DNA of 64,000 nucleotides from a bacterium. Lineage in GTDB: Bacteria; Orphanbacterota; Orphanbacteria; JBJXGV01. The notes below the pieces were generated by a model. The model was not told where the DNA came from and ran no database searches. It saw only the letters and a list, made by a program, of their open reading frames with translations. Positions 3,484 to 31,729 of this stretch are shown here, in pieces. The position numbers were made by a program, and so were the translations under genes. Where the stretch lies: positions 12,076 to 76,075 of the forward strand of contig JBJXGV010000073.1 of assembly GCA_046160485.1 (NCBI GenBank). Reading direction: 5' to 3'. Within the stretch, counting starts at the first letter, position 1. The number at the start of each line of letters is the position of its first letter.

Positions 3484-3711
3484 CCTCACACGTAGCGTGC
3501 GCGGCACGTGTTCGACATCGCCACGATCATCATCGGGTGTCGCCCGAGCACCCGCGCGGCACTTTTTGCCCTCCCTTAATCCGTTCTTTATTCGCAAGAC
3601 CCAGAGTTGCCACCTGTTCGTCACAGAGGACGGCGCGCGTTTTCGTGGTGATTTCGAATCCACCGGGAAGCGGCTGTCCTTGCACGAGGGACCGGAAGCG
3701 CGGAGGAGACG

Positions 3712-4977: not shown

Positions 4978-5054
4978 GGCGAGGGCGGCATCCTTGCGTC
5001 GCCGTGGCGCGGAGACTTCACTGGCTCTTAATCGAATCTTTACGTTTCATCGCG

Positions 5055-5100
5055 ATCATATCGAGCAATCATTCGCCCATAATCACGACGCTGGAATCGA
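5055..5100 (+). promoter_or_regulatory. Candidate Pho-box-like direct repeats upstream of pstS
   Basis: The sequence TTTCATcgcgATCATatcgagcaATCATtcgcccATAATCA has TCAT-containing half-sites at roughly 9-14 bp spacing. It ends about 15 nt before the pstS RBS. Confidence 0.3.
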
Positions 5101-5113
5101 AAGGAGATTCGAA

Positions 5114-6127
5114 ATGCACCGACCCACAACGGGCTCAGGATTCGTGCGCTCCATCGCAAGCGCGCTCTTTCTTACGCTCTCGCCGCTCTTCTTTGGCGCC
5201 TGCCAGGCAGCGCCGCTCTCCGGAGCCGTCAAGGTCGACGGATCGAGCACGGTGTTTCCCGTCACGGAGGCGGTGGCCGAAGAGTTCCAGATCCAAAATC
5301 CGAAGGTGCGCGTAACGGTCGGAATCTCGGGTACGGGAGGAGGCTTCAAGAAGTTTTACGCCGGCGAAATCGACATCAGCAATGCGTCGCGCCCGATCGC
5401 CGCGGCCGAGATCGAAGCCGCAGCGAAGAATGGCATCGAGTACATCGAGCTTCCCGTCGCATACGACGGTCTCTCGATCGTCGTGAATCCGAAGAACGAC
5501 TTTGTTTCGACGCTTACCGTCGAGGAGCTCCGGAAGATTTGGCAACCGGAAAGCACGGTCAAGCTGTGGAGCGATGTTCGGCCCGGCTGGCCCGCGAAGC
5601 CGATCAATCTCTACGGCGCTGGTCACGACTCGGGAACCTTCGACTACTTCACCGAGGCGATCGTGGGGAAAGCGAAGTCGTGCCGTTCCGACTACACCGC
5701 GAGCGAAGACGACAACGTTCTCGTGCAGGGCGTAGAAGGCGATAAGAACGCGCTCGGCTTCTTCGGCTACGCGTACTACGCGGAGAACAAGTCGCGGTTG
5801 AAGCTCGTCTCCGTGGATCCCGGCACGGGTGCGGTCGCGCCGTCGGAAGAAACGATTCGGAACGGCACCTACACGCCGCTCTCGCGGCCAATGTTCATCT
5901 ACGTCAGCGTCGCCGCGGCGAAGCGACCGGAGATACAGTCGTTCGTCAAGTTCTACATCGAGAACGCGCCGTCGCTCGTGACCGAGGTGGGTTACGTCCC
6001 GCTTCCGGCGACGGTGTACGAGTTGGCACTCGCCCGTTTCGATCAACGCACCGCCGGAACTGTCTTCGGGGGCGAGGGTCACAAGGTCGGCTTCAAACTC
6101 GAAGACTTGCTCACCGCGAAGAAGTAA
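5114..6127 (+). CDS. pstS: Phosphate ABC transporter substrate-binding protein PstS
   Basis: The internal start MHRPTT is preceded by an AAGGAG RBS. It carries a signal peptide and a PBP-like sequence ([15 protein letters not shown]), and is followed by pstCAB. Confidence 0.85.
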
Positions 6128-6182
6128 CCCGGAGGCGCCACGGAGGCGCGGCGCACGGGCGCCGCGCCGGGGGCGAACGACG

Positions 6183-7094
6183 ATGCAAGAGCCCGCAGGA
6201 ATACGAAAGGGACACCGCCGCCGCTGGCGCGAAGAAGCGATCTGCGGCGTCTTGTTTCTCTGTGCGCTCCTCTCCGTCGCAACGACGATGGGAATTGTCG
6301 TCGTGCTCGCGAAAGAGGCGTACTCGTTCTTCGCCGAGGTGCCGCTCGGTGATTTTCTCTTTGGAACGCGCTGGGCGCCGCTTTTGGATCCGCGCTCGTA
6401 CGGCGTGCTGCCGCTTGTTTGCGGCACCGCGATCGTCGTGATCGGCGCGGGCCTAATCGCGCTTCCCGTCGGCCTCGCGAGCGGCATCTACCTCAGCGAG
6501 TATGCCGGCTCACGCACGCGTCGAACGATCAAGCCGATCTTGGAAATCCTCGCCGGGATTCCGACGGTCGTGTACGGATTCTTCGCGCTGACGTTCATTA
6601 CGCCGATACTCACGAAAATCTTGCCGCAGACGCAGGTCTTCAACGCGGCGAGCGCGGCGATCGTCGTCGGCATCATGATTCTTCCGATGGTGACGTCGCT
6701 CTGCGACGACTCGCTCCGCGCGGTCCCGGCGTCGGTGCGGCAGGCCGCGTTCGCGGTCGGCGCCACGCCGCACGAGGTCTCGACGCAGGTCGTCGTTCCG
6801 GGCGCGCTCTCGGGCATTCTCGCGTCGTTCGTGCTCGCGCTCTCGCGCGCGCTCGGCGAAACGATGGCCGTCGTCATCGCCGCGGGACAGACGCCTAAGC
6901 TCACGCTCAACCCGCTCGAGAGTATCGAAACGATGACCGCCTACATCGTGCAAGTCAGCCTCGGCGACACGCCCGCGGGCACGATCGAGTACAAAACGAT
7001 CTTCGCGGTCGGCGCGCTTCTCTTCGCCATCACGCTCGGAATGAACCTCCTTGCCCACAGAATTCTCGCGCGCTTCCGCGAGGTGTACGAATGA
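6183..7094 (+). CDS. pstC: Phosphate ABC transporter permease PstC
   Basis: It is a multi-TM permease whose EAA-like loop ([12 protein letters not shown]) matches PstC, and it lies in the pst gene order. Confidence 0.85.
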
Positions 7095-8029
7095 GCACGC
7101 CCGCGACTGGCGCGCCGAACGCGACCGGACCGATCGCGGTGGCCAATCGACTTGGCGCTGGCTTCACGTCGCCGTACGAATCGAATGTTGCCGCGCGCCA
7201 GGCGGTCTCGCGTTCGTTCCGCACGCTCTGCGCCGTGCTGACGTGGCTCGGCGTCGTGCTTCTCGCCGTGCTCCTGTTTCACGTCGCGCGTGCGGGGCTC
7301 GGTTGGCTCGACTGGCAGTTCCTCTCAAGCTTCCCATCGCGGTTCGCCGAGCGGGCCGGGATTAAGTCCGCGCTCATCGGCACGCTCTGGCTGATTTCGT
7401 TGACGGCGATGTTCTCGATTCCGACAGGCATCGCCGCGGCGCTCTATCTCGAGGAGTACGCACGCCCGAGCCGCCTGAACACGTTCATCGAGATCAACAT
7501 TGCGAATCTCGCCGGCGTGCCGTCGATCGTCTACGGAATGCTCGGACTTGCACTCTTCGTTCGCGGATTCGCGCTCGGCCGAAGCGTTCTTGCGGGAAGT
7601 CTTACGATGTCGCTGCTCATCTTGCCGACGATCATCATCGCGTCGCGCGAAGCGATTCGCGCGGTGCCGCAATCGATTCGTCTCGCCTCGTTCGCGCTGG
7701 GCGCGACGCGTTGGGAGACCGTGCGCCACCACACGCTTCCGGCCGCGCTTCCGGGCGTGCTGACGGGCGTCATCCTTGCGCTCTCGCGCGCCATCGGCGA
7801 AACCGCGCCTCTTGTCATGATCGGCGCTCTCGCGTTCGTCGCGTTCATTCCGTCCGGACCGCTCGACGGCTTTACTGCGTTGCCGATTCAGATCTTCAAC
7901 TGGACATCGCGCCCGCAAGAAGAGTTTCACGGCATCGCGGCCGCGGCGATCATCGTCCTGCTCTTCGTTCTGCTTCTCATGAACTCCGTTGCGATCTATA
8001 TTCGGAACCGCCATGAAGGGAATCGGTGA
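7091..8029 (+). CDS. pstA: Phosphate ABC transporter permease PstA
   Basis: It is a multi-TM permease with an EAA motif ([12 protein letters not shown]) and shows 4-nt start/stop overlap with pstC. Confidence 0.85.
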
Positions 8030-8880
8030 TGTCGGTAATGACAACCACGAAGGCCGCGATCGCGACACGAGCGCGCGGCTCGGAGGCGAAGATGTCCGAG
8101 CCTGAGACCACCACGCTTCCGGCGATTCTCGAGACGCGCGATCTCACGTTTCGATACGGGCAGACTGCCGCGGTCAAGAAGATCAGCATTTCGATTTTCG
8201 AGAATCGCATCACGTCGATCATCGGGCCGTCGGGCTGCGGAAAGAGCACGCTCCTGCGGACGTTCAATCGCATGAACGATTTCATCGCCGACGCAACGAT
8301 CGAAGGCGAGGTCCTCTACCACGGCACGAATCTCTATGCGAAAGACATCGACCCCGTGGAGGTGCGGCGGCGGATCGGAATGGTGTTCCAGCGACCGAAC
8401 CCGTTCCCGAAGTCGATCTTTCAGAACGTGGCGTGGGGGCCGACGATCAACGGCTACGGCGGTAAAAACGCCAAGCGGAGCCTCGAGGAACTTGTCGAGC
8501 GCTCGCTTCGCCAGGCTGGATTGTGGGACGAGGTCAAAGATCGCCTCGACAAGGGTGGGCTCGCGCTCTCAGGCGGACAACAGCAGCGGCTCTGCATCGC
8601 GCGCGCGCTCGCGCTGCAGCCCGAGATCATCCTGATGGACGAGCCGTGCTCCGCGCTCGACCCGGCGTCGACGGCGCGCATCGAAGATCTCCTCTTCGAG
8701 CTGGCCGAGCGGTACACGATCGTCATCGTCACGCACAACATGCAGCAGGCGGCGCGCGTCTCCGATTTCACGGCGTTCCTCGACACGGGCACGCTCATCG
8801 AGTTCGGCGTCACCGATCAGGTTTTCACGCGGCCGAAGGAAAAGCGCACCGAGGATTACGTCACGGGGCGGTTCGGGTAA
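8026..8880 (+). CDS. pstB: Phosphate ABC transporter ATP-binding protein PstB
   Basis: It has Walker [10 protein letters not shown], the ABC signature LSGGQQQRL, Walker B ILMDEP and an H-loop. It overlaps the pstA stop. Confidence 0.9.
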
Positions 8881-8919
8881 CATCGACGGGCGCCGATCAC
8901 GGCGGAGGGGTGGATCTGA

Positions 8920-9633
8920 ATGAAGCATCTTCAAAGGGATCTCGACCGGTTGAAGCGAGAGATCCTTCTTATGGGATCGATGGTCGAGGAAGCGACGAAC
9001 AAAGCGCTGTCGGCGTTTCTTTATCGCCGGCCCGAGCTTGCCGAGGCGGTCATGGAAGGCGACGACCGCATCGACCAGAAGGAACTCGACGTCGAAGAGG
9101 AGTGCCTCAAGCTTCTCGCGCTACACCAACCGGTCGCGGCGGACCTGCGTTTCATCATCGCCGTGATGAAGGTGAACAACGATCTCGAGCGGATGGGCGA
9201 CGAGGCGTACAACATCGCCGAGCGGGCGTCTTATCTCTCGGCGCACGATCCGATCGGCGTGCCGGGTGATTTCCCGGCGATGGTCGATCGCGTGAGGATG
9301 ATGGTGCGCGATAGCCTCGACGCGCTCGTCAATCGCGACACGAACCTCGCGCGGAAGGTGTGCCGCGACGACGACCTCGTCGACTCGACGCACCGCGAAA
9401 TGTACATGGCGCTTCAGGAGCGGATGCGCGAAAACCCGCAGACGGTCGAGCGTGCCGTGCGCACGCTCTCGGTTTCGCGTCACCTCGAGCGCATCGCGGA
9501 CCTCGCGACGAACATCGCCGAGGACGTTGTCTTCATGGTCGACGGCGACGTGATCCGCCACAGGACGCCCGGGCTCTCCGGCACACAGCACGCGGGCCTT
9601 CCCGACGCTGCTGACGCCGACAAGGCCCGCTAG
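8920..9633 (+). CDS. phoU: Phosphate signalling complex protein PhoU
   Basis: Two PhoU repeats are present (DLRFIIAVMKVNNDLERMGD and LSVSRHLERIADLATNIAE). It lies immediately downstream of pstB. Confidence 0.9.
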   Translation: MKHLQRDLDRLKREILLMGSMVEEATNKALSAFLYRRPELAEAVMEGDDRIDQKELDVEEECLKLLALHQPVAADLRFIIAVMKVNNDLERMGDEAYNIAERASYLSAHDPIGVPGDFPAMVDRVRMMVRDSLDALVNRDTNLARKVCRDDDLVDSTHREMYMALQERMRENPQTVERAVRTLSVSRHLERIADLATNIAEDVVFMVDGDVIRHRTPGLSGTQHAGLPDAADADKAR

Positions 9634-12065: not shown

Positions 12066-12126
12066 GTCTTGGAGAATGCGCCGAGCCGAACCTCGTTGTG
12101 CGGAAGCGGCCGGCGTCCGGGTGCGC

Positions 12127-12576: not shown

Positions 12577-12660
12577 TGAAAGCCTCCTTGCCCATCGCGG
12601 GCGTCTGCTTTGTGCTGGATTCGGGGCTCCGGTGGCCCCGGGTTTTCGAATCGCACGGAG

Positions 12661-12682
12661 GGTATAGCAGACGGCGTACCAA
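12661..12682 (-). promoter_or_regulatory. Sigma-54 (-24/-12) type promoter upstream of the Hsp20 gene
   Basis: The minus strand reads CTTGGTACGCCGTCTGCTATACC. GG and GC are spaced exactly as in TGGCACG-N4-TTGC. The 3' half TGCTATACC is shared with the second sigma-54-like promoter at 30245..30260. Confidence 0.45.
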
Positions 12683-12894
12683 GTTGAGGACGCCGCTGGC
12701 GGGGCACGGATAAAACAATAGCAAATAGGCTATTAGGACAACGATGGTCGTTTAGATTCGAAACGGGGGCGGCATGGCCGCTGCGGACACTACGCCGAAA
12801 CGGCGCGAGAAATTGCGGAGTCAAGCGCCGCAATGGCTGAGGTGCGAGCCATGTTTGGCACACGAATCACCCGTCGCAGAGCGGGTGCGACGGG

Positions 12895-14397
12895 TTACTC
12901 GTGCTCGGAGTGTTCGGGGTGCGTCCCCTCGGGATCCGCGCCCGGGAGTTGCCCCATCGCCTCGATGAGCGCAGCGCGGAGTTCGTCCGGCCGGTGGGAA
13001 ACCTCGAAGATGTCCGTCGAGTACTTGAACTCGGGGTCGTGATGATCCCGGTGACACGACCGGCACATCTTCTCTGTAACCGGTTCGAGCGCGAAGTGAG
13101 GCTTCACGGTCCGGTCGCCGCCGCTCGTGATCAGCTCGTAGTGCTCCTTCCCCGGCCCGTGGCAGATCTCGCACTGGACGTTCACGAGCTTCGGTGTCAC
13201 GTCTTTGTGGCGGAAGCCGTTCCAGTGGCCGAAGCCCGTCACGTGGCATCCGACGCACTCGGGGTCGGTATCCACCTCTTCCTTCACCATCGTTTCCCAC
13301 GCGGTTGCGTGGCGCGTCGTCAGCCACTGCTCGTGTTCCTCCGTGTGGCATCCCATGCAGGTCTCGACGCCGAGGTACATTTCCTTGTCCATGTCAGGCC
13401 AGTCCGGGATGATGTTCGCCTTTCGAATCGCGTTTCGATAATCGGTGACGAGCTTCAACATCGATTCATCATCCGGGTACGTGTCGGTGAGCGCGACGAG
13501 AGTTGCGACCGACCCAGTGACCTTCTTCTGCGGCGAGACCTTCGACTCGAGGATAGCGACCATCCGCCCCTGGTCCCCAGGCTGGATGATGCACGTCTTG
13601 CCCACGAAAACCGGCTCCTTGTTTCGGAAGTTCCCATGGCCGACGAGCATGAGGTCGATTCCGCCGACGCTGCGCGCGATCTCCTTCGCGACGTTCATGC
13701 CGGTGTGGGCGATGCAGATGATGATGTCCGTCTTGCCCCGCAACTCTTGCACCGCCGATCGCGCCGCGACGAGCGGGTCTTTGACGATCAACTCGCGATC
13801 GCCGTCTTTCTTCGGGGCGATCTTGGAGCCCTCGTCGAGCATCATGACGCTCGTCACGCCCACGCGTGCTCCTCCCACTGGAATTCCGAGCATGCTGCGC
13901 GCGCCGAGGCGCGTCGTCGCATACGGCTTCGTGAAGAGCTCGCCGCTTTCGGCATCGTGCAGGTTCGCGCAGATGAGATTGAGGCCCTTGCGGTTCGTCA
14001 GATCGAGGATGTAGTTCTGCCCCTGCAGGAGATCGAGTTCGCCGAGGCCGCAGATCTCGTAGCCGAGCTGCTTGAGCCCTTCGTAGTAGTACTCGGCCTT
14101 GATCGAGTCTTGCAGCTTCTCGCCGCTGATGTTGTCGCCCCCGTCGAGCAGCATGACCATTCCGCGCTCGCCGAAGTTTTTTGCCGCGATGTACGCTGCG
14201 CGTCGTGGCAGACCGCCCGACTGAGCGTGGCTTCAACCACAGGGTTCGAGGTAGCCGAGCGCGTCCGATGAAAAGAAGACGCGAAGCTTCGACATGTCGA
14301 CGTCGGAAGTGCCCGAACACGAAGTGATGACGGCGGCCGCTACCACCACGATGAACCCGAACACCGCCGCGGGCGTTCGCCCGTTCCATTTCTTCAT
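12895..14397 (-). CDS. Lipoprotein: 5'-nucleotidase-like metallophosphatase fused to a tetraheme cytochrome c domain. A single in-frame TGA at 14233..14235 interrupts the frame and is a candidate selenocysteine codon
   Basis: From the ATG at 14397 the N-terminus reads MKKWNGRTPAAVFGFIVVVAAAVITSCSGTS...VFFSSDALGYLEPCG-[TGA]-SHAQSGGLPRRAAYIAAKNFGERGMVMLLDGGDNISG. This gives a signal peptide plus lipobox, then a degenerate metallophosphatase motif I, then the canonical 5'-nucleotidase motif II (GGL...LLDGGDN) in the same frame on both sides of the TGA. The C-terminal third carries four CxxCH heme sites (CMGCH, CVGCH, CEICH, CRSCH). A hairpin GUCG-GGC-GGUCU-GCC-A-CGAC begins 11 nt after the UGA. 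Confidence 0.6.
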
Positions 14398-14454: not shown

Positions 14455-16482
14455 CTATGGGATCTCGATGCGGAGGATTCGGTCCTGCTCGGTGATGGCA
14501 TCGACGACATCTTGCCCCGCGAGCACGCGGCCGAAGAGCGTGTAACGCCCCTCGAGATGGTGTTGCGCCGAGTGCGTGATGAAGAACTGGCTCCCGCCCG
14601 TGTCCTTACCCGCGTGCGCCATGCCGACGGCTCCCGCGCTGAAGCGCTCCTCGCCGATCTCGCACCGGATCGTGTAGCCGGCCGAGCCCCAGCCGTCGCC
14701 GCGCGGGCAGCCAGCCTGGATGACGAAACTCGGAACGACACGATGAAAGCGGATGCCGTTGTAGAAACCGCTTCGCGCTAGGGCAAGGAAGTTCGACACG
14801 GTGCTCGGGCATTCGTCGCCGAAGAGTTCGATCTCGATGGCGCCGCGATCCGTGACGATGCGGGCACGCGGCGACCCGAGCGGCAGGCCGAAGTCGGCCG
14901 CGTAACCCGACGCGTCGCGCTCGTCGGGGCGCGCGGCGAGCGGCTCCCCCGTCAGGCTGGCGAGCGCGTCCGCGGCGGCGCGCCGCACGATCACGTCGTC
15001 GTCGTCGAGCGCGGCGCGAAGCGGGCCGAGCGCGGCCTGGTCGCCGATTTGGCCGAGCGCCGCGGCGATCGAGGCTCGCAGTTCGGCGTCGTCCGGTGCG
15101 CGGCGCGCCACGAGGACTCGAGAGAGCGCGGCGACCACGGAGTCGCTGCGACGCTCGCCCAACGCGCCCGCGGCCACCGTCGCGACGACCCAATCCGGAT
15201 CATTGAGCGCCTTGATGATCAGAGCTTCGTCGCGCGGATCGCCGAACGCCGCAAGTGCGTCGACCGCACTGGCGCGCACGGCTCGGCGTTCGTCGCCGCA
15301 GAGGCGGCGCACGAGCGGGTGGAAGCCCTCGTCTTTCGTCGCACCGAATGAACTCACGACCTTCGCGACGACGAAGGGATCGGCGTCGTGCAGAAAGGGA
15401 TCGAGCGCTGCGGGCGCGCCGCGCGTGGCTGGGGCGAGCGCACTCGATCCGGCGCGTTGCGCGAGCGCGATTCCGGCGCGAAACCGAATGCCGGGGGCGG
15501 CGTCGCTCGCAAGACGTGCGAGCGCGGCTTGCAGCGACGCCTCCGATGATGGCGTCACGTTGCGGAGTGCGCCGAGCGCGGAAACTGCCGCTTCGCGAAC
15601 GTTTACCGACGGATCGTTGAGCGCTTGGAGCAGATCGCCCGCGGCAAGGCCGGTTGCCGTGGATTCGGCCGCGCGCGCGGCGACAGCACGCAAACGCCAA
15701 TCCGGATCCGCGAGGCCGGAGGCGATCGCGCGGTGAAGACGCGCATCCCCCGCAAGCCCCTCACCAAGACGGCCAACCGCGCGATATGCGAAGTAGCGAA
15801 CGCTAGGATCGGGGTCGCGCGTCAGGCGGAGCGCGCCGGCGGCACCGCGGCTGTCGGCGAGTCGTTCGAGCGCGTGAAGCGATTGGCCGCGGACGCCCGC
15901 GTGCGGGTCGTCGAGTGCGGCGATCAGCGCAGGAACCGCGGTGGAATCCCCGCTGCGCGACAGCGCGAACGCCGCGGCTTCGCGACGGCGCCCTTCGCCG
16001 TGCCGCAGAAAAGCAGCGACTCGCCCCGTCGTCCCGGCGGCGTGAATTTTTCCGAGCGCGACGAGAGCACGCTCCGCAAGATCGGTGTTCGACGATGCGG
16101 TAGCCAGGAGCAGCGCGGGCGCGGCGTCCGCGGAACCAATCTGCCCGAGCGCGTACGCTGCGGCGCAGGCGACGCGGGCGTCGGGGTCCGCGAGCAGGGG
16201 CGTTAAAAGAGGCGCGCTCTTCGCATCTTGAATTCGGCCGAGTGCGACGACGGCCCTGCGTCGGGTCTCGCCGCCTGCGTTCTTAAGAAACTGAGCAAGC
16301 CGCGGATCGTTGCCGTTCCGCTGGTCTTCGATGATCGCGATCGTTCGCGCTGCGGCGTGCTCGGAGTTCGCGGGGTCCTCGGCGCTCGGCACCGGGGCGG
16401 CACGCGCCACGACGACCATGCCGCAAGCAACAAGACTCGCGGCAACGGTCAATGCGATTGAGGATCGGCGCACGTGGCCCAT
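14455..16482 (-). CDS. Secreted HEAT-repeat (PBS-lyase-like) protein fused to a C-terminal cyclophilin-type peptidyl-prolyl isomerase
   Basis: After a signal peptide come many repeats of ...D.D..VR..A..ALG.IG... (HEAT/PBS-lyase type). The last roughly 170 aa match cyclophilin (GFYNGIRFHRVVPSFVIQAGCP...GSQFFITHS...RYTLFGRV). Confidence 0.7.
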   Translation of the reverse strand: MGHVRRSSIALTVAASLVACGMVVVARAAPVPSAEDPANSEHAAARTIAIIEDQRNGNDPRLAQFLKNAGGETRRRAVVALGRIQDAKSAPLLTPLLADPDARVACAAAYALGQIGSADAAPALLLATASSNTDLAERALVALGKIHAAGTTGRVAAFLRHGEGRRREAAAFALSRSGDSTAVPALIAALDDPHAGVRGQSLHALERLADSRGAAGALRLTRDPDPSVRYFAYRAVGRLGEGLAGDARLHRAIASGLADPDWRLRAVAARAAESTATGLAAGDLLQALNDPSVNVREAAVSALGALRNVTPSSEASLQAALARLASDAAPGIRFRAGIALAQRAGSSALAPATRGAPAALDPFLHDADPFVVAKVVSSFGATKDEGFHPLVRRLCGDERRAVRASAVDALAAFGDPRDEALIIKALNDPDWVVATVAAGALGERRSDSVVAALSRVLVARRAPDDAELRASIAAALGQIGDQAALGPLRAALDDDDVIVRRAAADALASLTGEPLAARPDERDASGYAADFGLPLGSPRARIVTDRGAIEIELFGDECPSTVSNFLALARSGFYNGIRFHRVVPSFVIQAGCPRGDGWGSAGYTIRCEIGEERFSAGAVGMAHAGKDTGGSQFFITHSAQHHLEGRYTLFGRVLAGQDVVDAITEQDRILRIEIP

Positions 16483-16520: not shown

Positions 16521-16748
16521 CTAAGCTTTCTTTTCTCGCTCCTCGGCGAGTTTGAGCGCCTCCGTCAGGTTCTGCAGCAGCGTCGCGATGTGGAATCGCA
16601 CAACGCGCGTCTCCTCGGGCGGCGCTTCCTTCAGCCAGCGAGAAAGTTCCGCGAGGCTGTCTTCTCTTTCGAGAACCTTGACGAGGTCTTTGAACGCGGC
16701 GAGGCCGAGTTCCTTGTCGACTTGGCGGTCGTATTTGTCTTCTTTCAT
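16521..16748 (-). CDS. Small charged hypothetical protein (75 aa)
   Basis: The internal start MKEDKYDRQVDKE has a GGAGAAG RBS. The sequence is a predicted helical, lysine/glutamate-rich protein with no recognisable motif. Confidence 0.35.
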   Translation of the reverse strand: MKEDKYDRQVDKELGLAAFKDLVKVLEREDSLAELSRWLKEAPPEETRVVRFHIATLLQNLTEALKLAEEREKKA

Positions 16749-16928
16749 TTGCTTCTCCTCCGCCGGCACACTCGAAGGGGCGTTGCATGAGCCCCGCTCA
16801 TTCACGAAGAACTTTTCAACCAAAAAGACAAACGGGGCCACGATACTAACAATTCGCCGCGAACACGGTCAATCGGTTTCCCTCGCGGTTTCTCTCGCAC
16901 GCACGACGTATCGCGTTGTCGCGGGCGT

Positions 16929-18374
16929 CTAGCCTTTGATGACGATGATCGGTTGCAAGCGAGCGACGCGGCGAGAGATCCCGGCGCCGGCGACGGTATC
17001 GACGACATCGCCAACGTTCTTATACGCGAGCGGCGCTTCTTCGCCCAACGTGGCGCGCTCCTTCGCGCGCACGACGACACCTTGCTCGCGAAGCTCTTTC
17101 TCGAGCGCGCCGATATCGACGCGACGTCTGGCGTCACCGCGGCTTCGCAAGCGCCCAGCGCCGTGACACGACGATCCGAAAGACTCCGCCATCGACTGCT
17201 CTGTGCCGACGAGCACAAACGATCCGCGCCCCATGTCGCCGGGTATGAGAACCGGCTGGCCGGAGTCGCGATACGCGTCCGGAATTTGCGCGTGCCCCGG
17301 CGGGAATGCGCGCGTTGCGCCCTTGCGATGCACGCACACACGTACGTTCTTTCCGCCGACACTGTGCGTTTCGAACTTTGCCATGTTGTGCGACACGTCG
17401 TACACGAGGCGAAGTCCGAGCTGGCCGATTCCGATACCGAAGACACGCGCGATGCTCTCCGCGGCGCGAACCATCAGAAGCTGCCGGTTCGCCCACGCGA
17501 AATTCGCCGCCGCGTTCATGGCGCCGATGTATCGTTCGCCGCTCGACGAGCGGATCGGCGCGCACACGAGCTGCCGGTCGGGAATATCCGGAAATCGCGC
17601 GGTGAATTCGCGCATCATCGCGCGAATCGAGTCGTCGCACACTTGGTGTCCGAGGCCCCGCGAGCCGCAGTGAATCAGGATCGCAGATTGTCCGAGATCC
17701 AAGCCGAATTTACGCGCGACGCCGGCATCGAAGATTTCAGAAACGAAATCGATCTCGAGAAAATGATTTCCGGAACCGAGGCTCCCGAGTTGGTTGCGTC
17801 CGCGCTCCCATGCACGCTCGCTGAGACACTCGGGGTCGGCGCCTGCGATGCATCCGTTCTCTTCGCAGTGATCAAGATCGGACGAGTGACCGATTCCTCT
17901 GCCGACGAGGTAGCGCGCTCCCTTGCGAAGTACCGCGGTTTCGTCGAGACGCGAGAGCGCGATCGACGAACCAGCGCCGACGCCGCACGGAATGTCGCGC
18001 GTGAGCGCGGATGCGACGGCATCGGCGCGCGCGGCGATCTCCTCGCGAGGGATGTTGATCGTCGCGAGACGGACGCCGCAGTTGATGTCGTAGCCGACGC
18101 CGCCTGGCGAGATCACTCCATCATCGACGTCCATCGCGGCGACGCCGCCGATCGGGAAGCCGTAGCCCCAGTGGATGTCGGGCATCGCCATCGAGTAGCG
18201 AAGAATGCCCGGCAGATGCGCCACGTTCGCGACCTGCTGCGGGCTCTGGTCTTTCTCGATGTCGGGAAGCATCGATTCGCGCGCGAAGATGAGTCCCGGT
18301 ACGCGCATCTTGCCGACGCGCGGAATCTCCCACCGGAATGTGTCGAGTTGTTTGTAGTAGATGCCCTTCATCAC
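16929..18374 (-). CDS. rtcB: RNA-splicing ligase RtcB
   Basis: The RtcB signatures GYDINCGVR, the metal-binding HCGSRGLGHQ, and the catalytic His context HNMAKFE are present over the full length. Confidence 0.9.
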   Translation of the reverse strand: MMKGIYYKQLDTFRWEIPRVGKMRVPGLIFARESMLPDIEKDQSPQQVANVAHLPGILRYSMAMPDIHWGYGFPIGGVAAMDVDDGVISPGGVGYDINCGVRLATINIPREEIAARADAVASALTRDIPCGVGAGSSIALSRLDETAVLRKGARYLVGRGIGHSSDLDHCEENGCIAGADPECLSERAWERGRNQLGSLGSGNHFLEIDFVSEIFDAGVARKFGLDLGQSAILIHCGSRGLGHQVCDDSIRAMMREFTARFPDIPDRQLVCAPIRSSSGERYIGAMNAAANFAWANRQLLMVRAAESIARVFGIGIGQLGLRLVYDVSHNMAKFETHSVGGKNVRVCVHRKGATRAFPPGHAQIPDAYRDSGQPVLIPGDMGRGSFVLVGTEQSMAESFGSSCHGAGRLRSRGDARRRVDIGALEKELREQGVVVRAKERATLGEEAPLAYKNVGDVVDTVAGAGISRRVARLQPIIVIKG

Positions 18375-18381
18375 GCGCTCA

Positions 18382-18864
18382 TCAGAGGTCGAGAAGTACG
18401 GTTGCTTCCCACGCGCCCGCGATGTCGCGAATCGAGAGACGATGGTAGGTCGCGGCCTTCACTTCTTTGTGGAGCGCGTGGCGCTTCGTATCGATCGCCT
18501 CGCCCCGCGCCGTCGCCTCGATCGCGGTATCAGAGATGTGCGTGATGTCGAACTCCCGGAAGAAGAGCGCCTCCGCGCTCGCGGCGCCGATGAGTTCGTT
18601 GAGCCACACCGCGAGGAGTTCCTCGCGATTCGGTGCGGCGCATGCGATGGGCCGCGCGGTTCGCAGTTCGACGCGATCCAGATCGGTCATGAGCGCGAAC
18701 GTGGCGCGCGCAGCCGCCGCAAAGAGCGCGCGCATGCCGGTCGCGCGAATCCGCAGCAGAGCGTCACTCGGGTGATCTTCCTCTTCGAACTCGGAACTCA
18801 ATGATTTGCTCACGATCGCCGAAAAGTGGTCGAAGTCCAAGAATGGCTCACCGTCAATTGACAC
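18382..18864 (-). CDS. Archease (RtcB activator)
   Basis: The 160-aa protein has N-terminal FEEEDHPSDALLRIRATGMRALFAAAA (archease H-x-x-D motif) and C-terminal KAATYHRLSI...GAWEATVLLDL. It lies immediately upstream of rtcB, 7 nt away on the same strand. Confidence 0.75.
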   Translation of the reverse strand: MSIDGEPFLDFDHFSAIVSKSLSSEFEEEDHPSDALLRIRATGMRALFAAAARATFALMTDLDRVELRTARPIACAAPNREELLAVWLNELIGAASAEALFFREFDITHISDTAIEATARGEAIDTKRHALHKEVKAATYHRLSIRDIAGAWEATVLLDL

Positions 18865-18917: not shown

Positions 18918-20309
18918 ATGACAGAGCCCACGGACTCCGGAAAACCCGTCTACTTCGAAAACGTTCTTGCCGCCGTCGGCAACACGCCGCTCGTGCGCTT
19001 GAACCGCATCGTCGGCAAACACGACTCCCTTCTCCTCGCGAAGATTGAAAGCTTCAATCCCGGCGGCAGCGTCAAGGATCGCATCGGACGCAACATCGTC
19101 GACGAGGCCGAGAAGAGCGGACGGCTCAAGCCCGGCGGAACGATCGTCGAGGCGACGTCCGGCAACACGGGCGTTGGTCTCGCACTCGTCGCGGCGGTGC
19201 GCGGCTACAAACTCGTCTGCGCGATGCCGGACAAGATGAGCAAGGAGAAGATCAATCTGCTGAAGGCGTACGGCACGCGCGTCGTGGTTTGTCCGACGAA
19301 CGTCGCGCCGGACTCGCCGGACTCGTACTACGAAGTGGCGCGGCGCATCGCGCGCGAGACACCGAACGCGATCCTCGCGAACCAGTATCACAATCAGGAG
19401 AACCCGCGCTCGCACTACATCTCGACCGGCCCCGAGATTTGGCGGCAGACGGCGGGAAAGATCACGCACTTCGTCGGCGGAATCGGGACAGGCGGAACGA
19501 TGAGCGGTACCGGGCGCTATCTGAAAGAGATGAATCCGAACGTCAAAGTGATTTGCGCGGATCCGGAAGGATCGATCCTGAAGGAATATTTCCTGACGAA
19601 GAATATCGGTGAAGCGCGGCCTTACCTCATCGAGGGGATCGGCGAGGACATCATTCCGACGACGGTTCACTTTCAGTATTTCGACGAGATTCGCAGTATC
19701 AACGATCGCGAGGCGATCGACATCACGCGGCGACTCTCGCGCGAGGAAGGGATTCTGATCGGAACGAGCGGCGGCGCGGCGGTTGTCGCGGCGTGCCAGG
19801 TTGCGCGCGAAACGTCCGCTGACGCGGTCATCGTCGTCATTCTTCCGGATTCTGGCGAGCGCTACCTCTCGAAGGTTCACAACGACGCTTGGATGCAGGA
19901 CCAGGGACTGCTCTCGGCGAATGCCGTGTCGCTGCGCGAGGTGGTCGCGAGGAAGTCGGCGAGCATTCCGCGGCTCATCACCGCCGATGCCGCGGATACG
20001 ACGCGAATCGCCGTGGCAATCATGGAGCAGCACAACGTCTCGCAGCTTCCGATCGTCGAGGGCGGCGATCTTGTCGGCGCGATGTCGGAGGCTGGCGTGA
20101 TGGGTGCGGCGCTGCGCGATCCGGGGCTGCTCAACAGAGCGTGCCGCGACACGATGGAGCCGCCGTTCCCGCGCGCGCAGGCCGAAGAGAGCGTACAGCG
20201 AGCGATCGATCTGTTCACGAAGGGCGCCCATGCGGTGATTGTCGAAGACGCGCGGTCGCCGGTTGGGATCGTCACGCGCTTCGACGTGCTCGGGATCGCC
20301 GCAAACTGA
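18918..20309 (+). CDS. Cystathionine beta-synthase (PLP fold-type II catalytic domain plus C-terminal CBS pair)
   Basis: It has the PLP-Lys region NPGGSVKDR, the GNTG loop, and a C-terminal Bateman (CBS) domain pair (VSQLPIVEGGDLVGAMSE...). Confidence 0.85.
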   Translation: MTEPTDSGKPVYFENVLAAVGNTPLVRLNRIVGKHDSLLLAKIESFNPGGSVKDRIGRNIVDEAEKSGRLKPGGTIVEATSGNTGVGLALVAAVRGYKLVCAMPDKMSKEKINLLKAYGTRVVVCPTNVAPDSPDSYYEVARRIARETPNAILANQYHNQENPRSHYISTGPEIWRQTAGKITHFVGGIGTGGTMSGTGRYLKEMNPNVKVICADPEGSILKEYFLTKNIGEARPYLIEGIGEDIIPTTVHFQYFDEIRSINDREAIDITRRLSREEGILIGTSGGAAVVAACQVARETSADAVIVVILPDSGERYLSKVHNDAWMQDQGLLSANAVSLREVVARKSASIPRLITADAADTTRIAVAIMEQHNVSQLPIVEGGDLVGAMSEAGVMGAALRDPGLLNRACRDTMEPPFPRAQAEESVQRAIDLFTKGAHAVIVEDARSPVGIVTRFDVLGIAAN

Positions 20310-20394
20310 AATCGCTCACATCGATCCACTCCGGTAGTGCGCGCAGCTCGCGGTCGGCGCGGCATGCCGCTGCCAAACAACAACGCGAGGTGAC

Positions 20395-21564
20395 ATGACG
20401 CACGACGACGACTTCAGCACACGGCGGTTTGCGACGCGCGCTATCCACGCCGGCCAGTCGCCCGACCCCACGACCGGCGCGATCATTCCGCCGATCTACC
20501 AAACATCGACATTCGTCCAGTCCGAGATCGGCGTTCACAAGGGATACGACTACTCGCGCGCGGGGAACCCGACGCGTACGGCGCTCGAGAAGAACGTGGC
20601 GTCGCTCGAGGGCGCGCGTCACGGCGCGGCGTTCGCGTCGGGCATGTCGGCGATCGACGGCATTCTTCGCTCCCTGCGCGCGGGCGATCACGTCGTCTCC
20701 GGCAACAATCTCTACGGCGGCTCGTTCCGGCTTTTCCGTCAGGTCCTCGAGAAGTTCGGTCTCGAATTCTCCTTCGTCAATACGTCGGATTTGGGGGAGA
20801 CGAAGCGCGCGATTCGTAAGAACACGCGCGTGCTCTTCATCGAAACGCCGACGAATCCGATGATGATTGTTTCCGACATCGCCGCGCTGGCGCAGATCGC
20901 ACGCGAAGCGGGGGTGCTGCTCGTCGTCGACAACACGTTTCTCTCGCCCTACTTTCAGCAGCCGATTGCGCTCGGCGCGGACGTCGTCGTCCACTCGTCG
21001 ACCAAGTATCTCGGCGGACACTCCGACATCATCGGCGGCTTCGTCGCGACCAACGACGATGCTATGGCCGAGCACCTCGCGTTCATTCAGAAGGCCGTCG
21101 GTGCCGTGCCCGCGCCATTCGACGCGTGGCTCATCCTGCGCGGCACGAAGACGCTCGCGGTTCGCATGAAGCAGCACGAGGAAAACGCGCGCGCGATCGT
21201 GGGATTCCTCGCGGAGAGCGGCCCCGCGCGGGGCGTACAGAAGGTGCTCTATCCGGGTCTGCCGGGCCACCCGGGTCACGAGATCGCGAAACGCCAAGCG
21301 ACGGGATTCGGCGCGATGATTTCGTTCGTCGTCGAGAGCCGCGCCCGCGCGGCGGAGATCATTGGCAGGATGCGCGTTTTCTCGCTGGCCGAGAGCCTCG
21401 GCGGCGTCGAAAGCCTCGTCTGCCATCCGGGAGAGATGACGCACGCCAGTGTCGCCGCGGCGGAACGCGAGCGAATCGGTATCTCCGATGGAATGATTCG
21501 CCTGTCGGTCGGCATCGAAGACAAGGAAGATCTGCTCGCCGATCTCGCGGAGTCCCTCAGCTAG
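20395..21564 (+). CDS. Cystathionine gamma-lyase / gamma-synthase family (Cys/Met metabolism PLP enzyme)
   Basis: Fold-type I motifs are present: NPTRTALE, the PLP-Lys context HSSTKYLGGHSD, and a C-terminal SLGGVESLV. Confidence 0.85.
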   Translation: MTHDDDFSTRRFATRAIHAGQSPDPTTGAIIPPIYQTSTFVQSEIGVHKGYDYSRAGNPTRTALEKNVASLEGARHGAAFASGMSAIDGILRSLRAGDHVVSGNNLYGGSFRLFRQVLEKFGLEFSFVNTSDLGETKRAIRKNTRVLFIETPTNPMMIVSDIAALAQIAREAGVLLVVDNTFLSPYFQQPIALGADVVVHSSTKYLGGHSDIIGGFVATNDDAMAEHLAFIQKAVGAVPAPFDAWLILRGTKTLAVRMKQHEENARAIVGFLAESGPARGVQKVLYPGLPGHPGHEIAKRQATGFGAMISFVVESRARAAEIIGRMRVFSLAESLGGVESLVCHPGEMTHASVAAAERERIGISDGMIRLSVGIEDKEDLLADLAESLS

Positions 21565-21648: not shown

Positions 21649-23784
21649 TTGAGGCAGAGCGATTACTTTTCGCACCCATCGGTCGACGAACAAGAGTACG
21701 AGGCATGGGCGGCGAAAATCGCCAGCGGCGATGTCGTGGGCTCCGGCGTGTTCTACGCGTCGCCGGTCTACCCGTACTTTCTCGGCGCGCTGTTCCGAAT
21801 TTTCGGCGAAGATCTCTTCATTCCGCGGGTCGTGCAGGTTGTCATTGGCGCGGCTCGCGCGCCGATCGCCGCCGCGTTTGCCGCCTTGTCATTCGGGCCC
21901 GCGATCGGTGTTGCGACGGGCGTCATCGTCGCGCTCTACCGGACGACGCTGTTCTACGACGTCTTCCTCCTCAAAGAATCGCTCGCGCTTTTCATTCAGG
22001 ACATCGCGCTCTTCGCGCTCGCGCTTGTGCTGTGGCGCGCACGTCGCCGCACCGCGTCGGCGGCCGGCGAGGTGTCGGTGCGCGCGCTCGTCCTGAGCGG
22101 CTTCCTCATGGGGCTTGCGGCTCTCGCGCGCGAGTATCTCGCGCCGCTGATCGCGTGCGGCGCGGCGATTCTCGCGCTGCACGTACGCGCACTCGAACGC
22201 GGCGCGCCTATGAGCGTGCCGGCGGAGAGGGCTACCTCCGGCCTCGCGAGTTGGCGCTCGCCGGCGCGCGCGGCCGCGCTCTTCGCCGCTGGCGCGGCGA
22301 TCGCGCTCTTTCCGGTCGCCATCCGCAACCTTGTCGTCGGCGGCGAATTCGTCCTCCTGTCGGCGCAAGGCGGGCAGAATCTCTATCTCGGCAACAGCCT
22401 CGCGAACCACACGGGGCTCGTGACGTTTCCGGCAAACGTCCGCTCTGACCCGATGACGCTCGAGCAGGATTTTCGCGCACTCGCGTCGCATCGCGTTGGG
22501 CGCGCGCTCGGCCCGACCGAGGCGTCGAACTACTGGCTGCGAGAGTCGCTGCGCGAGATGGGCTCTAATCCCACGCACGCGATCACGCTTCTCGCACGCA
22601 AGGCGCTTTTGTCGATCAGCGCTTTCGAGGTGCCCAACGTACTTTCCATCGGCTACTTCTCGCGCATCTCGCATTCGCTCGCGTGGAATCCTGTTCGCTT
22701 CGGCCTTCTGTTTCCACTCGCGGCGCTCGGCATTGCGGCGGCGCTTCGCGATCGCGAGAGGCGTTCGAGCGCGGCGCCCGCCCTCGCGGCGCTTGCCGTG
22801 GTCTTCTTCGCACTCGTCGCGTTTTACGTCTCCGATCGATACCGTCTGCCGGCTGTGATGCCGCTGGCGATGTTCGCTGCGATCGGCGCCGCGTCGATGT
22901 GGCGCGTCGTCGTCGCGGATCTCGCACGCGCGCCGCGACGAATCGGACGCGCCGCGATCTCCTGCGCCATCGTTGTCGCGTTCGCCGCTCTTTCGAGACT
23001 GCCGCTTCTCCCGGAGGGAAGCCGCGGCGAAGCGATGCCGCCCGCGAATCTCGGGAACTCGCTCGCGAAGGAGGGGCGATACGAAGAAGCGATCGCCCGC
23101 TACAACGAGGCGTTCGCAATCGAGCCCGACACCGACTTCGCGCTCTACGGAATCGCGGTCGTTTACGGCGATCTCGGCCGCCACGCGGAAGCCGTCGACG
23201 CCTTTCGGAAATACATCGCGAAGAATCCCTACAGCGCGCAGGCGTACTACAGTCTTGGCAACACCTACTTCGAGATGGGACGGCCGGACACGGCGCTCAT
23301 GGCGTTCGAAGCCGCGGTGCGGCTCGAACCGTATTACGCGGAAGCGCATTTCAACATGGGCGCCGTACGCCACGGCCTCGGTGAGCTTGGCGGCGCAATC
23401 GATGCGTACGAGGCGGCGACGCGCGCGGCCCCCAATCTTTGGCGTGCGTGGAATAACCTGGGAGTTGCGCTGCTTGCCGTTGGGCGGCGCGAGGAGGGCG
23501 TCGCGGCGTTGGAGCGAGCACTCGCCGACACCGGGTACGTCGAGCCGCGAATGAATCTTGCGGATTGTGTACTGCGCGACGACGCCGCGCGCGCGTCCGA
23601 GCTTTATGGCTGGGTGCTTGCGCGCGAGAAAAATACCGACGCGTTGCTCGGCCTTGCGCGTGCTCGAGCGAGCCTCGGCGATGCCGCCGCCGCGCGAATG
23701 CACCTCGAACTCTTCTTGCGCGTCGCTCCGCCCGACGATGCGCGCCGCGCCGGGGCCGAGGATCTCCTTCGAACGCTCGGCTAG
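21649..23784 (+). CDS. GT-C glycosyltransferase family 39 (PMT/ArnT-like) membrane protein with C-terminal TPR repeats
   Basis: About 450 aa of multi-TM sequence with the PMT_2-like YPYFLGALF motif are followed by TPR repeats (AIEPDTDFALYGIAVVYGDLGRHAEAVDAFRKYIAKNPYSAQAYYSLGNTYF...). The ORF as tracked begins at TTG, and a hydrophobic in-frame stretch upstream suggests the true start may be non-canonical. Confidence 0.65.
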   Translation: MRQSDYFSHPSVDEQEYEAWAAKIASGDVVGSGVFYASPVYPYFLGALFRIFGEDLFIPRVVQVVIGAARAPIAAAFAALSFGPAIGVATGVIVALYRTTLFYDVFLLKESLALFIQDIALFALALVLWRARRRTASAAGEVSVRALVLSGFLMGLAALAREYLAPLIACGAAILALHVRALERGAPMSVPAERATSGLASWRSPARAAALFAAGAAIALFPVAIRNLVVGGEFVLLSAQGGQNLYLGNSLANHTGLVTFPANVRSDPMTLEQDFRALASHRVGRALGPTEASNYWLRESLREMGSNPTHAITLLARKALLSISAFEVPNVLSIGYFSRISHSLAWNPVRFGLLFPLAALGIAAALRDRERRSSAAPALAALAVVFFALVAFYVSDRYRLPAVMPLAMFAAIGAASMWRVVVADLARAPRRIGRAAISCAIVVAFAALSRLPLLPEGSRGEAMPPANLGNSLAKEGRYEEAIARYNEAFAIEPDTDFALYGIAVVYGDLGRHAEAVDAFRKYIAKNPYSAQAYYSLGNTYFEMGRPDTALMAFEAAVRLEPYYAEAHFNMGAVRHGLGELGGAIDAYEAATRAAPNLWRAWNNLGVALLAVGRREEGVAALERALADTGYVEPRMNLADCVLRDDAARASELYGWVLAREKNTDALLGLARARASLGDAAAARMHLELFLRVAPPDDARRAGAEDLLRTLG

Positions 23785-31720: not shown

Positions 31721-31729
31721 GACGTCATT

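Follow-up and report, generated by a model that had tools for sequence, protein, structure and literature searches.

A Putative Selenoprotein Joining a 5'-Nucleotidase-Type Domain to a Cytochrome c554-Type Tetraheme Domain in an Orphanbacterota Genome

The Gene and Its Features

A gene on the minus strand of contig JBJXGV010000073.1 (assembly GCA_046160485.1; Orphanbacterota) encodes a protein in which a 5'-nucleotidase-type domain lacking the hydrolytic histidines is joined to a cytochrome c554-type tetraheme domain. It lies within the 64,000-nt stretch from position 12,076 to 76,075 of that contig, which is referred to here, at its full length, as the window, and all coordinates are those of this stretch. 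The reading frame (12895..14397, minus strand) comprises 500 residues and a stop codon, and its sole in-frame TGA, at 14233-14235, is codon 55, which appears to be read as selenocysteine (Sec) within a Cys-Gly-Sec motif. The features of the gene are listed below, with the evidence for each assignment in brackets.

12895..14397, minus strand: complete coding sequence of an UshA-like PCGU (seleno)protein with a C-terminal tetraheme domain (translation, NF041198, homologues)
14317..14397, minus strand: signal peptide with the lipobox …AAVITS-C27 (direct sequence reading)
13498..14292, minus strand: 5'-nucleotidase-type (calcineurin-like) N-domain without the hydrolytic histidines, residues 36-300
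14254..14271, minus strand: degenerate motif I SSDALG, residues 43-48, with Asp45 kept and Leu47 at the His ligand position (alignment to snake venom 5'-nucleotidase, NDVHA; column statistics)
14233..14247, minus strand: E51-P-C53-G-U55 motif, the proposed redox center, with the UGA codon at 14233-14235 (C-G-[C/U] invariance; UGA kept in close relatives)
14202..14221, minus strand: candidate bacterial selenocysteine insertion sequence (SECIS) hairpin, GUCGGGC-GGUCU-GCCACGAC, with the apical loop GGUCU, beginning 11 nt 3' of the UGA (comparative data)
14134..14136, minus strand: Asp88 at the bridging metal-ligand position of motif II (GD), kept (alignment, column statistics, co-occurrence)
14035..14040, minus strand: Glu120-Leu121 where motif III (GNH) has Asn-His, with the ligand Asn changed to Glu and the catalytic His lost (alignment, co-occurrence)
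13705..13707, minus strand: His231 at the metal-ligand position of motif IV, kept (alignment, column statistics, co-occurrence)
13630..13638, minus strand: His254-Gly-Asn256 at the metal-ligand positions of motif V (GH-x-N/Q), kept (alignment, column statistics, co-occurrence)
12988..13383, minus strand: cytochrome c554-type tetraheme domain, residues 339-470
13345..13359, minus strand: heme 1 motif CMGCH, residues 347-351, invariant in the family
13243..13257, minus strand: heme 2 motif CVGCH, residues 381-385, without a conserved distal His and the counterpart of the five-coordinate heme 2 of c554 (c554 alignment)
13159..13173, minus strand: heme 3 motif CEICH, residues 409-413
13051..13065, minus strand: heme 4 motif CRSCH, residues 445-449

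From its signal peptide and lipobox, the 500-residue product is predicted to be a lipid-anchored periplasmic lipoprotein. Lipoboxes like this one are found in the relatives at loci L001, L004, and L007, and a lipobox-like motif is present in 57 of 210 full-length family members. At the opposite end of the protein, residues 491-500 (12898-12927) form a His/Glu-rich tail, GTHPEHSEHE, which is absent from the relatives P0005 and P0009 and may bind metal.

In public records, the clade of the window is represented only by the ORF (open reading frame) of ~420 residues that lies 3' of the UGA (12898-14160 of the window, minus strand). The cluster of this ORF comprises P0269, P0001, and P0270 (MFN0152568.1), with a cluster mate of 419 residues named "multiheme c-type cytochrome", and all close database relatives are ORFs of ~420 residues beginning after the UGA. 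Because gene callers take UGA as a stop, the genes of this clade are wrongly annotated, as truncated "multiheme c-type cytochromes", and the signal peptide, motif I, and the Cys-Gly-Sec center all lie outside the annotated product.

Selenocysteine at Codon 55

Comparison with homologous loci gives good support to the reading of the UGA at codon 55 as Sec. In the three closest lineages found in public assemblies (L001, L004, and L007; 55-64% identity), UGA occupies the same codon as in the window, and the frame is conserved on both sides of it (…FF[ST][ST]DA[IL]GY[LI]EPCG*S[HK]…). Of the 85 non-duplicate homologous loci that include the motif region, 39 have UGA at the aligned codon and 46 have Cys, and all 85 read C-G-C or C-G-UGA at the motif column. 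Such alternation of Sec and Cys at one column is typical of redox-active catalytic residues.

The candidate SECIS hairpin is corroborated by covariation. Among four clade members compared, one stem pair of the window hairpin changes from U:A to G:C, a compensatory exchange, while 28 other Sec forms have in common a 9-bp hairpin ~20 nt 3' of the UGA with compensatory changes in five pairs. Furthermore, the best hairpin following the codon has a median of -14.4 kcal/mol in Sec forms as opposed to -11.4 in Cys forms (Mann-Whitney p=0.002). The case for the hairpin rests on these comparative data, because the simple minimum free energy z-score for the 81-nt stretch around the UGA is unexceptional (0.41). 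An Rfam scan of the window returned no SECIS and no RNA family besides tRNA-Met, the sole tRNA in the 64 kb.

Of the 40 Sec forms, 27 have a histidine no more than three residues past Sec (CGU-H or CGU-S-H), as opposed to 5 of 46 Cys forms, and the window protein reads CGU-S-H57 (14227-14232). This residue may be a functional partner of Sec, or it may be a by-product of the UGA-C codon context or of the SECIS sequence.

A Nucleotidase-Type Domain With a Remodeled Metal Site

The N-terminal domain had been assigned to the UshA-like 5'-nucleotidase type in the initial annotation, and the family profile bears this out with matches to solved 5'-nucleotidases at E=4e-33 and to the thiosulfohydrolase SoxB at E=4e-20. 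A Pfam scan of the window protein, one of the searches suggested at that stage, found Cytochrome_C554 and no match to Metallophos (PF00149) or 5_nucleotid_C (PF02872) at E<=1. The calcineurin-like ligand set (D-x-H, G-D, G-N-H, H, G-H-x-[QN]) is incomplete: the earlier observation that SSDALG lacks the motif I His ligand proved accurate, with Leu47 at its position, and extends to the whole family, from which this His is absent. Compared with UshA, CD73, and CpdB, where a calcineurin-like domain is paired with 5_nucleotid_C, the window protein differs in the motif I change from His to Leu and the motif III change from Asn-His to Glu-Leu, lacks 5_nucleotid_C and a Pfam Metallophos match, and has C-G-U and four hemes as additions. 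As had been surmised, a function as a simple nucleotidase is very unlikely, since leucines replace both histidines (Leu47 and Leu121) and hemes take the place of the nucleoside-binding C-domain. SoxB is a further point of comparison (TIGR04486; PDB 2wdc): the window protein reaches 70 bits against a cutoff of 550 and its di-manganese ligand set is incomplete, and SoxB itself, unlike the window protein, has neither hemes nor a CxU motif. No sox genes occur in the window or at related loci.

The specific invariant of the N-domain across the family is [E]-P-C-G-[C/U]. Conserved as well are GG-x-x-R, G87, K100, N145, and D248, but these are common to ordinary nucleotidases and look like structural residues. 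The classical ligand columns vary across the family, and a co-occurrence analysis reveals that Asp88, Glu/Asp120, His231, and His254 are either all present or mostly absent together. All four are kept in 30 of the 40 Sec forms (the window included) and none in 4, as opposed to 7 and 24, respectively, of the 46 Cys forms; for retention of the quartet, Fisher's test gives p=2e-8 over these 86 loci, with kinship handled only by coarse clustering. The trend holds over 35 clusters at 40% identity (~12-13 Sec-kept, 4 Sec-lost, 3 Cys-kept, 15 Cys-lost). Judging from these alignments, the family appears to consist of two subfamilies, one with Sec and a retained metal site, the other with Cys and no such site. 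The window protein and the rest of its clade fall into the first, keeping Asp45, Asp88, Glu120, His231, His254, and Asn256; their site lacks just two residues, the motif I His (Leu47) and the catalytic GNH His (Leu121). An early reading of the site as fully degenerate, drawn from family-wide columns, was rejected for this subfamily by the co-occurrence analysis.

A Cytochrome c554-Type Tetraheme Domain

The four heme motifs reported initially, CMGCH, CVGCH, CEICH, and CRSCH, were recovered by Pfam, by the cytochrome c554 structure 1bvb, and by the family profile. The window protein matches Pfam Cytochrome_C554 (PF13435) at E=5.6e-14 and 1bvb at E=6e-12, and the family profile matches 1bvb (E=5e-23), OcwA (6i5b; E=2e-27), and MccA (4rkm; E=7e-5). 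As a sequence pattern, the four motifs are far beyond chance.

The resemblance to Nitrosomonas europaea cytochrome c554 (1bvb/1ft5) and to the c554 modules of OcwA (6i5b) and MccA consists of four CxxCH motifs in the same order. In the c554 alignment, H363 of the window protein falls on the distal His27 and H419 on the distal His102, and heme 2 has no distal His; in the homologue model described below, identity to c554 is ~30% over 128 residues. Together with H468, which follows heme 4, these are the only three invariant or near-invariant histidines outside the motifs, giving three distal His for four hemes. Conservation within the heme domain is highest around heme 2 (DPECVGCHVTG…GGF), and this heme has been ascribed the role of active site in c554, OcwA, and MccA (bioRxiv 10.1101/641308).

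Several differences separate the domain from c554 proper. c554 is free-standing, whereas the heme domain of the window protein is fused to an enzyme-like domain; its score of 40 bits against NF043010 (Cyt554_Nsmonas; cutoff 400) indicates that it is not a c554 orthologue; and no hao-like neighbor, which would suggest a hydroxylamine oxidoreductase context, was found around the window gene.

No solved structure pairs nucleotidase-type and c554-type domains. The predicted structure considered here is that of the full-length Cys homologue P0014, which is 28% identical and belongs to the subfamily without the metal site (predicted local distance difference test score 91, predicted template modeling score 0.89). 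In this model, the long interdomain linker helix of nucleotidases appears to be kept and the heme module would occupy the place of the nucleoside-binding domain. Exactly four CxxCH motifs are present in 252 of 269 retrieved proteins and C-G-C in 197 of 210 full-length proteins. A homology search with the N-domain only returned 17 proteins, all with the heme domain, and is too insensitive to show that the domains never part.

Family Membership and Distribution

With Sec written as Cys, the window protein scores 258 bits against NCBIfam NF041198, "UshA-like (seleno)protein" (UshA_like_PCGU), just under the curated equivalog cutoff of 275, and the best stretch places residues 18-294 on profile positions 3-274 of 519. 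The C-terminal 174 residues alone reach 105 bits on positions 402-519, and the curated profile therefore already holds the fusion. Since other clear two-domain members score from 237 to 329 bits, the cutoff marks a core clade rather than the homologous family, and the window protein would be a divergent member of the latter. In common with the family it has the two-domain architecture, P-C-G-[U/C], the four-heme c554-like C-domain, and the Sec position. Its clade departs from the NF041198 core in the sub-cutoff score and in being an uncultured clade whose members, 55-87% identical, are truncated at the UGA by annotation pipelines.

The family is large. A word-indexed search yielded at least 501 homologue clusters at 90% identity, and a hidden Markov model scan of 1.84 billion representatives gave 6,680 matches at E<=1e-30, which may include some plain nucleotidases; the best 150 of these matches all exceed 360 bits. 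At least 381 species-level genomes contain a relative, and the host phyla include Eisenbacteria, Krumholzibacteriota, Fibrobacterota, Latescibacterota, Acidobacteriota, and Planctomycetota, with Verrucomicrobiota, Nitrospinota, Poribacteria, Armatimonadota, Myxococcota, and Gammaproteobacteria among the further groups.

An UshA-like CxU family (COG0737) was already listed in the 2008 ocean selenoproteome study of Zhang and Gladyshev, with 76 Sec and 92 Cys sequences, as one of the twenty major families of the survey and among only three to which no conserved Cys-based redox motif was attributed (PMC2398784). It was relisted without a function in reviews of 2022 and 2026 (PMC9312934, PMC13188914). 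The architecture, considered unusual in the initial annotation, is therefore already catalogued: it is family-wide, is encoded in NF041198, has been listed since 2008, and, as the sequence searches indicate, belongs to a very large family with thousands of members in many phyla. The possibility raised at the same time, that this might be a common and characterized family with an ordinary motif I His and no redox role, is borne out only in part, as the family is common but has no characterized member and lacks that His throughout. New here are the observation that C-G-[Cys/Sec] and the four hemes form the invariant core of the family, the joint retention of Sec and the metal site, the covarying hairpin after the UGA, and fusions or pairings with thiol-redox modules in other lineages.

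Genes and Domains Associated With the Family

The neighbor immediately upstream of the selenoprotein gene in the window is the following.

14455..16482, minus strand: secreted HEAT-repeat protein with a C-terminal cyclophilin domain and the lipobox LVA-C, co-oriented with the selenoprotein gene (Pfam HEAT_2 1e-52, Pro_isomerase 8e-39)

Its co-orientation and proximity were noted from the start, and the gap between its end and the selenoprotein start codon measures 57 nt. No minus-strand terminator-like site was found in this region, and the arrangement suggests that the two genes are probably co-transcribed. The order HEAT-cyclophilin followed by selenoprotein recurs at L001, L004, and L007. 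A survey of gene neighborhoods, as proposed in the initial annotation, found this link kept only within the clade of the window; a universal operon was considered and rejected, none being present among the homologous loci.

In other lineages, the family gene adjoins LptD in 15 loci of the Fibrobacterota/Eisenbacteria/Krumholzibacteria type (FCB) and BatA/VWA/DUF4159 in 11 loci of Planctomycetota/Verrucomicrobiota (PVC), and both adjacencies look like lineage synteny.

Three further associations are recurrent, each with a thiol-redox module that carries a Cys motif. A DsbA/GILT-like thioredoxin-fold domain with CP[FY][GA] is fused to the C-terminus in one clade (P0079, P0099, P0108, P0118, P0019, P0212, and Latescibacterota L052 and L060), and a DsbA-like domain is inserted in the tandem-domain protein P0125. 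The latter (1207 residues) contains two UshA-like domains, of which the first carries C-E-C followed by the DsbA-like domain and the second C-G-C and the hemes. In a Pseudohongiella genome, a gene for a DsbA-like protein with CSHC lies 70 nt upstream of the family gene. In six Planctomycetota/Verrucomicrobiota loci (L049:7215-8015, L058:7425-11075, L067, L075, L078, and L091), the family gene is followed directly by a gene for a secreted Thioredoxin_7 protein (WCGPC, CGWC, or CPWC) running into HEAT_2 repeats, with BatA/VWA/DUF4159, an "aerotolerance"-type operon, upstream. The HEAT-cyclophilin protein of the window resembles the repeat region of these proteins weakly (30% over 366 residues, E=3e-9).

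The third association is with DUF1573. Ig-like domains of this type, with a single CxC each, are fused N-terminally in at least six representatives (P0133, P0158, P0191, P0195, P0242, and P0263), and a DUF1573 gene adjoins the family gene in 12 of 86 loci from several phyla (L023, L029, L035, L045, L050, L057, L073, L074, L076, L082, L088, and L092), with both Sec and Cys subfamilies. The fused domain matches NF041425, "OS_HP2 family (seleno)protein", and DUF1573 is listed as a UGC-motif selenoprotein family. Because they are repeatedly fused or adjacent, the UshA-like and DUF1573/OS_HP2 selenoprotein families appear to work together.

Proposed Function

The redox role suggested initially is reasonable, and the window protein probably catalyzes redox chemistry and not hydrolysis: the hydrolytic apparatus of a nucleotidase and its substrate-binding domain are gone, Cys-x-Sec/Cys and four hemes form the conserved core, and Sec is kept in nearly half of the lineages at a cost. 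The overall proposal, that it is a heme-wired Cys/Sec oxidoreductase of the NF041198 family, is favored tentatively, at a little under an even chance. Its functional center would be the Cys53-Gly-Sec55 loop, which follows strand beta1 at the former metal site. A substrate would bind at the remodeled site, most likely an anionic species of the sulfur, selenium, or arsenic type or a partner protein with a Cys motif; Sec55 would perform a two-electron step together with Cys53, the pair alternating between selenol/thiol and selenenylsulfide; and the four hemes would hand electrons singly to or from the periplasmic cytochrome pool. In the subfamily of the window, a metal at Asp88, Glu120, His231, and His254, with Asp45 and Asn256, may help to bind or activate the substrate, and the change from Asn to Glu would favor a more highly charged, possibly redox-active ion. 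Metal occupancy, the proximity of the Cys/Sec loop to a heme, the direction of electron flow, and the substrate are what we infer, and this specific sequence of substrate binding, Sec/Cys chemistry, and heme relay is possible but doubtful.

Phosphatase folds have been turned into Cys-based oxyanion reductases before, as in ArsC, derived from the low-molecular-weight protein tyrosine phosphatase, and Acr2, derived from the Cdc25/rhodanese fold. Since a phosphatase-type pocket is kept and this precedent for arsenate reduction exists, a tetrahedral oxyanion or chalcogen substrate would fit, and a Cys-motif partner protein would fit because of the fusions seen in the other subfamily. Cys/Sec two-electron centers coupled to one-electron carriers are likewise known from Mia40 (CPC)-Erv1-cytochrome c, the GCUG motif of thioredoxin reductase, ferredoxin:thioredoxin reductase, and ArsC-type reductases. 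The likeness to the Mia40, thioredoxin reductase, and ArsC-type systems would lie in a vicinal CxC/CxU redox center, the hand-off of electrons to heme c, and a reused phosphatase scaffold; it is one of possible working only, with no relationship in sequence or fold. Taken more broadly, the family may represent an undescribed class of heme-wired (metallo)selenoenzymes, in which a nucleotidase metal site was converted into a Cys-Sec center (metal-assisted in the Sec subfamily) with a c554 wire. Such enzymes would carry out redox chemistry on a chalcogen or pnictogen oxyanion, or would terminally accept or donate the electrons of a periplasmic CxC/CxU disulfide relay with DUF1573/OS_HP2 and thioredoxin/DsbA-like partners, independent of DsbB/DsbD. 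This wider proposal is speculative and, as it stands, doubtful.

Several observations weigh against the proposed oxidoreductase. All four metal-site residues are missing from 28 of 86 family members, and a metal is therefore not essential to the common function of the family; the initial suggestion that Cys-Gly-Sec complements the remodeled site thus draws support from the co-retention of Sec and the quartet (30/40 as opposed to 7/46), but does not extend to a metal-dependent function of the whole family. In addition, the 64-kb window gives no hint of sulfur, selenium, arsenic, or respiratory metabolism, the neighborhood of the gene (HEAT-cyclophilin, Hsp20, RtcB/archease, and Pst/PhoU) is uninformative on the substrate, and no operon is common to distant homologues. 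A literature search found no paper on the nucleotidase/heme fusion and none testing any member of the family. The two observations that follow, on the distribution of the thiol-redox partners and on the open heme of c554, count against the proposal as well as against the alternatives to which they belong.

It is conceivable, if rather unlikely, that the protein serves a periplasmic thiol/disulfide (selenenylsulfide) relay and nothing more, a counterpart of the Mia40 (CPC)-Erv1-cytochrome c pathway in which C-G-U exchanges with DsbA- or thioredoxin-like proteins and with DUF1573, the hemes exchange electrons with the respiratory cytochrome c pool, and the metal site has a structural role only. 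Such a relay would account for the DsbA/GILT-like domains fused C- or N-terminally in separate clades, the Thioredoxin_7-HEAT genes directly downstream in the six PVC loci, the CSHC gene directly upstream in Pseudohongiella, and DUF1573 (CxC/UGC), fused or adjacent in several phyla. The upstream partner in the window, a HEAT-repeat folding catalyst whose HEAT region resembles the PVC thioredoxin-HEAT protein, would also suit it, although repeat similarity is weak evidence. The thioredoxin and DsbA associations, however, almost all occur in the Cys subfamily devoid of the metal site, outside the clade of the window; the 64-kb window holds no DUF1573 gene, and the flanking HEAT-cyclophilin and Hsp20 are not of the thioredoxin fold; and the co-conservation of Asp/Glu/His/His with Sec would be unexplained if the site were merely vestigial. 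Catalysis on a small molecule at the heme itself is distinctly less probable. Here the reaction would take place at the open heme 2, in the manner of MccA, NrfA, or OcwA, with the Cys/Sec pair above it holding Cu(I) or forming an S-S or Se-S intermediate; Cu(I) in the sulfite reductase MccA and the covalent intermediates of SoxAX/TsdA are precedents. The absence of a conserved distal His at heme 2 and the profile matches to OcwA (E=2e-27) and MccA (E=7e-5) point in this direction, as does the finding that SoxB is the best-scoring named NCBIfam enzyme model for the N-domain (E=1e-19). Yet c554, an electron carrier, has the same open heme, which means that the lack of a distal His may be merely inherited; the SoxB score is far below its cutoff (70 bits as opposed to 550), and no sox, sulfite, nitrite, or copper-handling genes occur among the neighbors of the window gene or of related loci.

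That the protein is a plain electron-transfer cytochrome, with the N-domain a decayed, non-catalytic scaffold or docking module, is very unlikely. The public annotation of the clade as "multiheme c-type cytochrome", the loss of the metal ligands in much of the family, and the lack of a conserved operon would agree with this reading, but C-G-[C/U] is invariant among sequences only ~25% identical, a costly Sec codon and SECIS are maintained in ~45% of loci, and the Asp/Glu/His/His quartet appears to be under selection in the Sec subfamily. Least probable of all, and hardly to be expected, is a residual hydrolase, that is, a metal-center phosphoesterase or SoxB-like thiosulfohydrolase whose hemes are regulatory or serve a coupled step. 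Plausible ligands do stand at six of seven ligand positions in the subfamily of the window, and the fold matches 5'-nucleotidases and SoxB; against this, leucines replace the catalytic GNH His (Leu121) and the motif I His (Leu47), 5_nucleotid_C and a Pfam Metallophos match are absent, and a large part of the family is without any ligands.

If the oxidoreductase proposal is correct, the family would tie Sec/Cys two-electron chemistry directly to periplasmic c-type hemes in many uncultured phyla. The Sec/metal-site subfamilies, the recurrent DUF1573/OS_HP2 fusion, and the recurrent pairing with thioredoxin-fold proteins offer handles for testing it.

Gene Neighborhood in the Window and Its Clade

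The gene order kept in the clade runs from cystathionine beta-synthase/gamma-lyase through archease-RtcB, a small ORF, HEAT-cyclophilin, the selenoprotein, a Metallophos gene present in some members, and Hsp20 to an outer-membrane beta-barrel protein and HTH_17. The small conserved ORF (16521-16841, minus strand) precedes the HEAT-cyclophilin gene, is 75 residues long in relatives, and has no Pfam match. It is immediately preceded by a match to a sigma-70-like promoter (16872-16843, minus strand), and the small ORF, HEAT-cyclophilin, and selenoprotein genes may form one transcription unit.

At L001:9272-11146, L004:9644-11182, and L007:9264-11051, an extra gene stands between the selenoprotein gene and Hsp20. 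Its product is a secreted metallophosphoesterase of 512-624 residues with intact DxH, GD, and GNHD and a FlgD_ig-like C-terminal domain. The corresponding site in the window is a 318-bp gap (12577-12894), and tblastn of the window detected no remnant. This downstream Metallophos gene of close relatives was considered as a partner of the selenoprotein and rejected, as it is an ordinary secreted gene absent from the window.

Upstream of the small ORF, an RtcB RNA ligase-archease pair (16929-18864, minus strand) is divergent from genes for cystathionine beta-synthase (PALP+CBS) and a Cys/Met-metabolism pyridoxal phosphate enzyme (18918-21564, plus strand), an arrangement kept in all close relatives. 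Four genes from the selenoprotein gene and on the opposite strand lies a complete phosphate-starvation cluster (1684-9633, plus strand), which is not kept beside the selenoprotein gene in relatives. It encodes a PAS/HAMP histidine kinase, a phosphate-selective porin O/P, a PstS-like binding protein, two permeases, an ABC ATPase, and PhoU.

The window also holds FtsH, glycogen phosphorylase, TPR glycosyltransferases, and regulators. Large membrane proteins encoded at 21649-23784 (plus strand), 23781-26222 (minus strand), 36518-38758 (plus strand), and 31562-34867 (plus strand) combine PMT_2/Dpy19-type glycosyltransferase or spermine-synthase-like domains with C-terminal TPR, the annotation of the first being inferred from the syntenic PMT_2/TPR genes of relatives.

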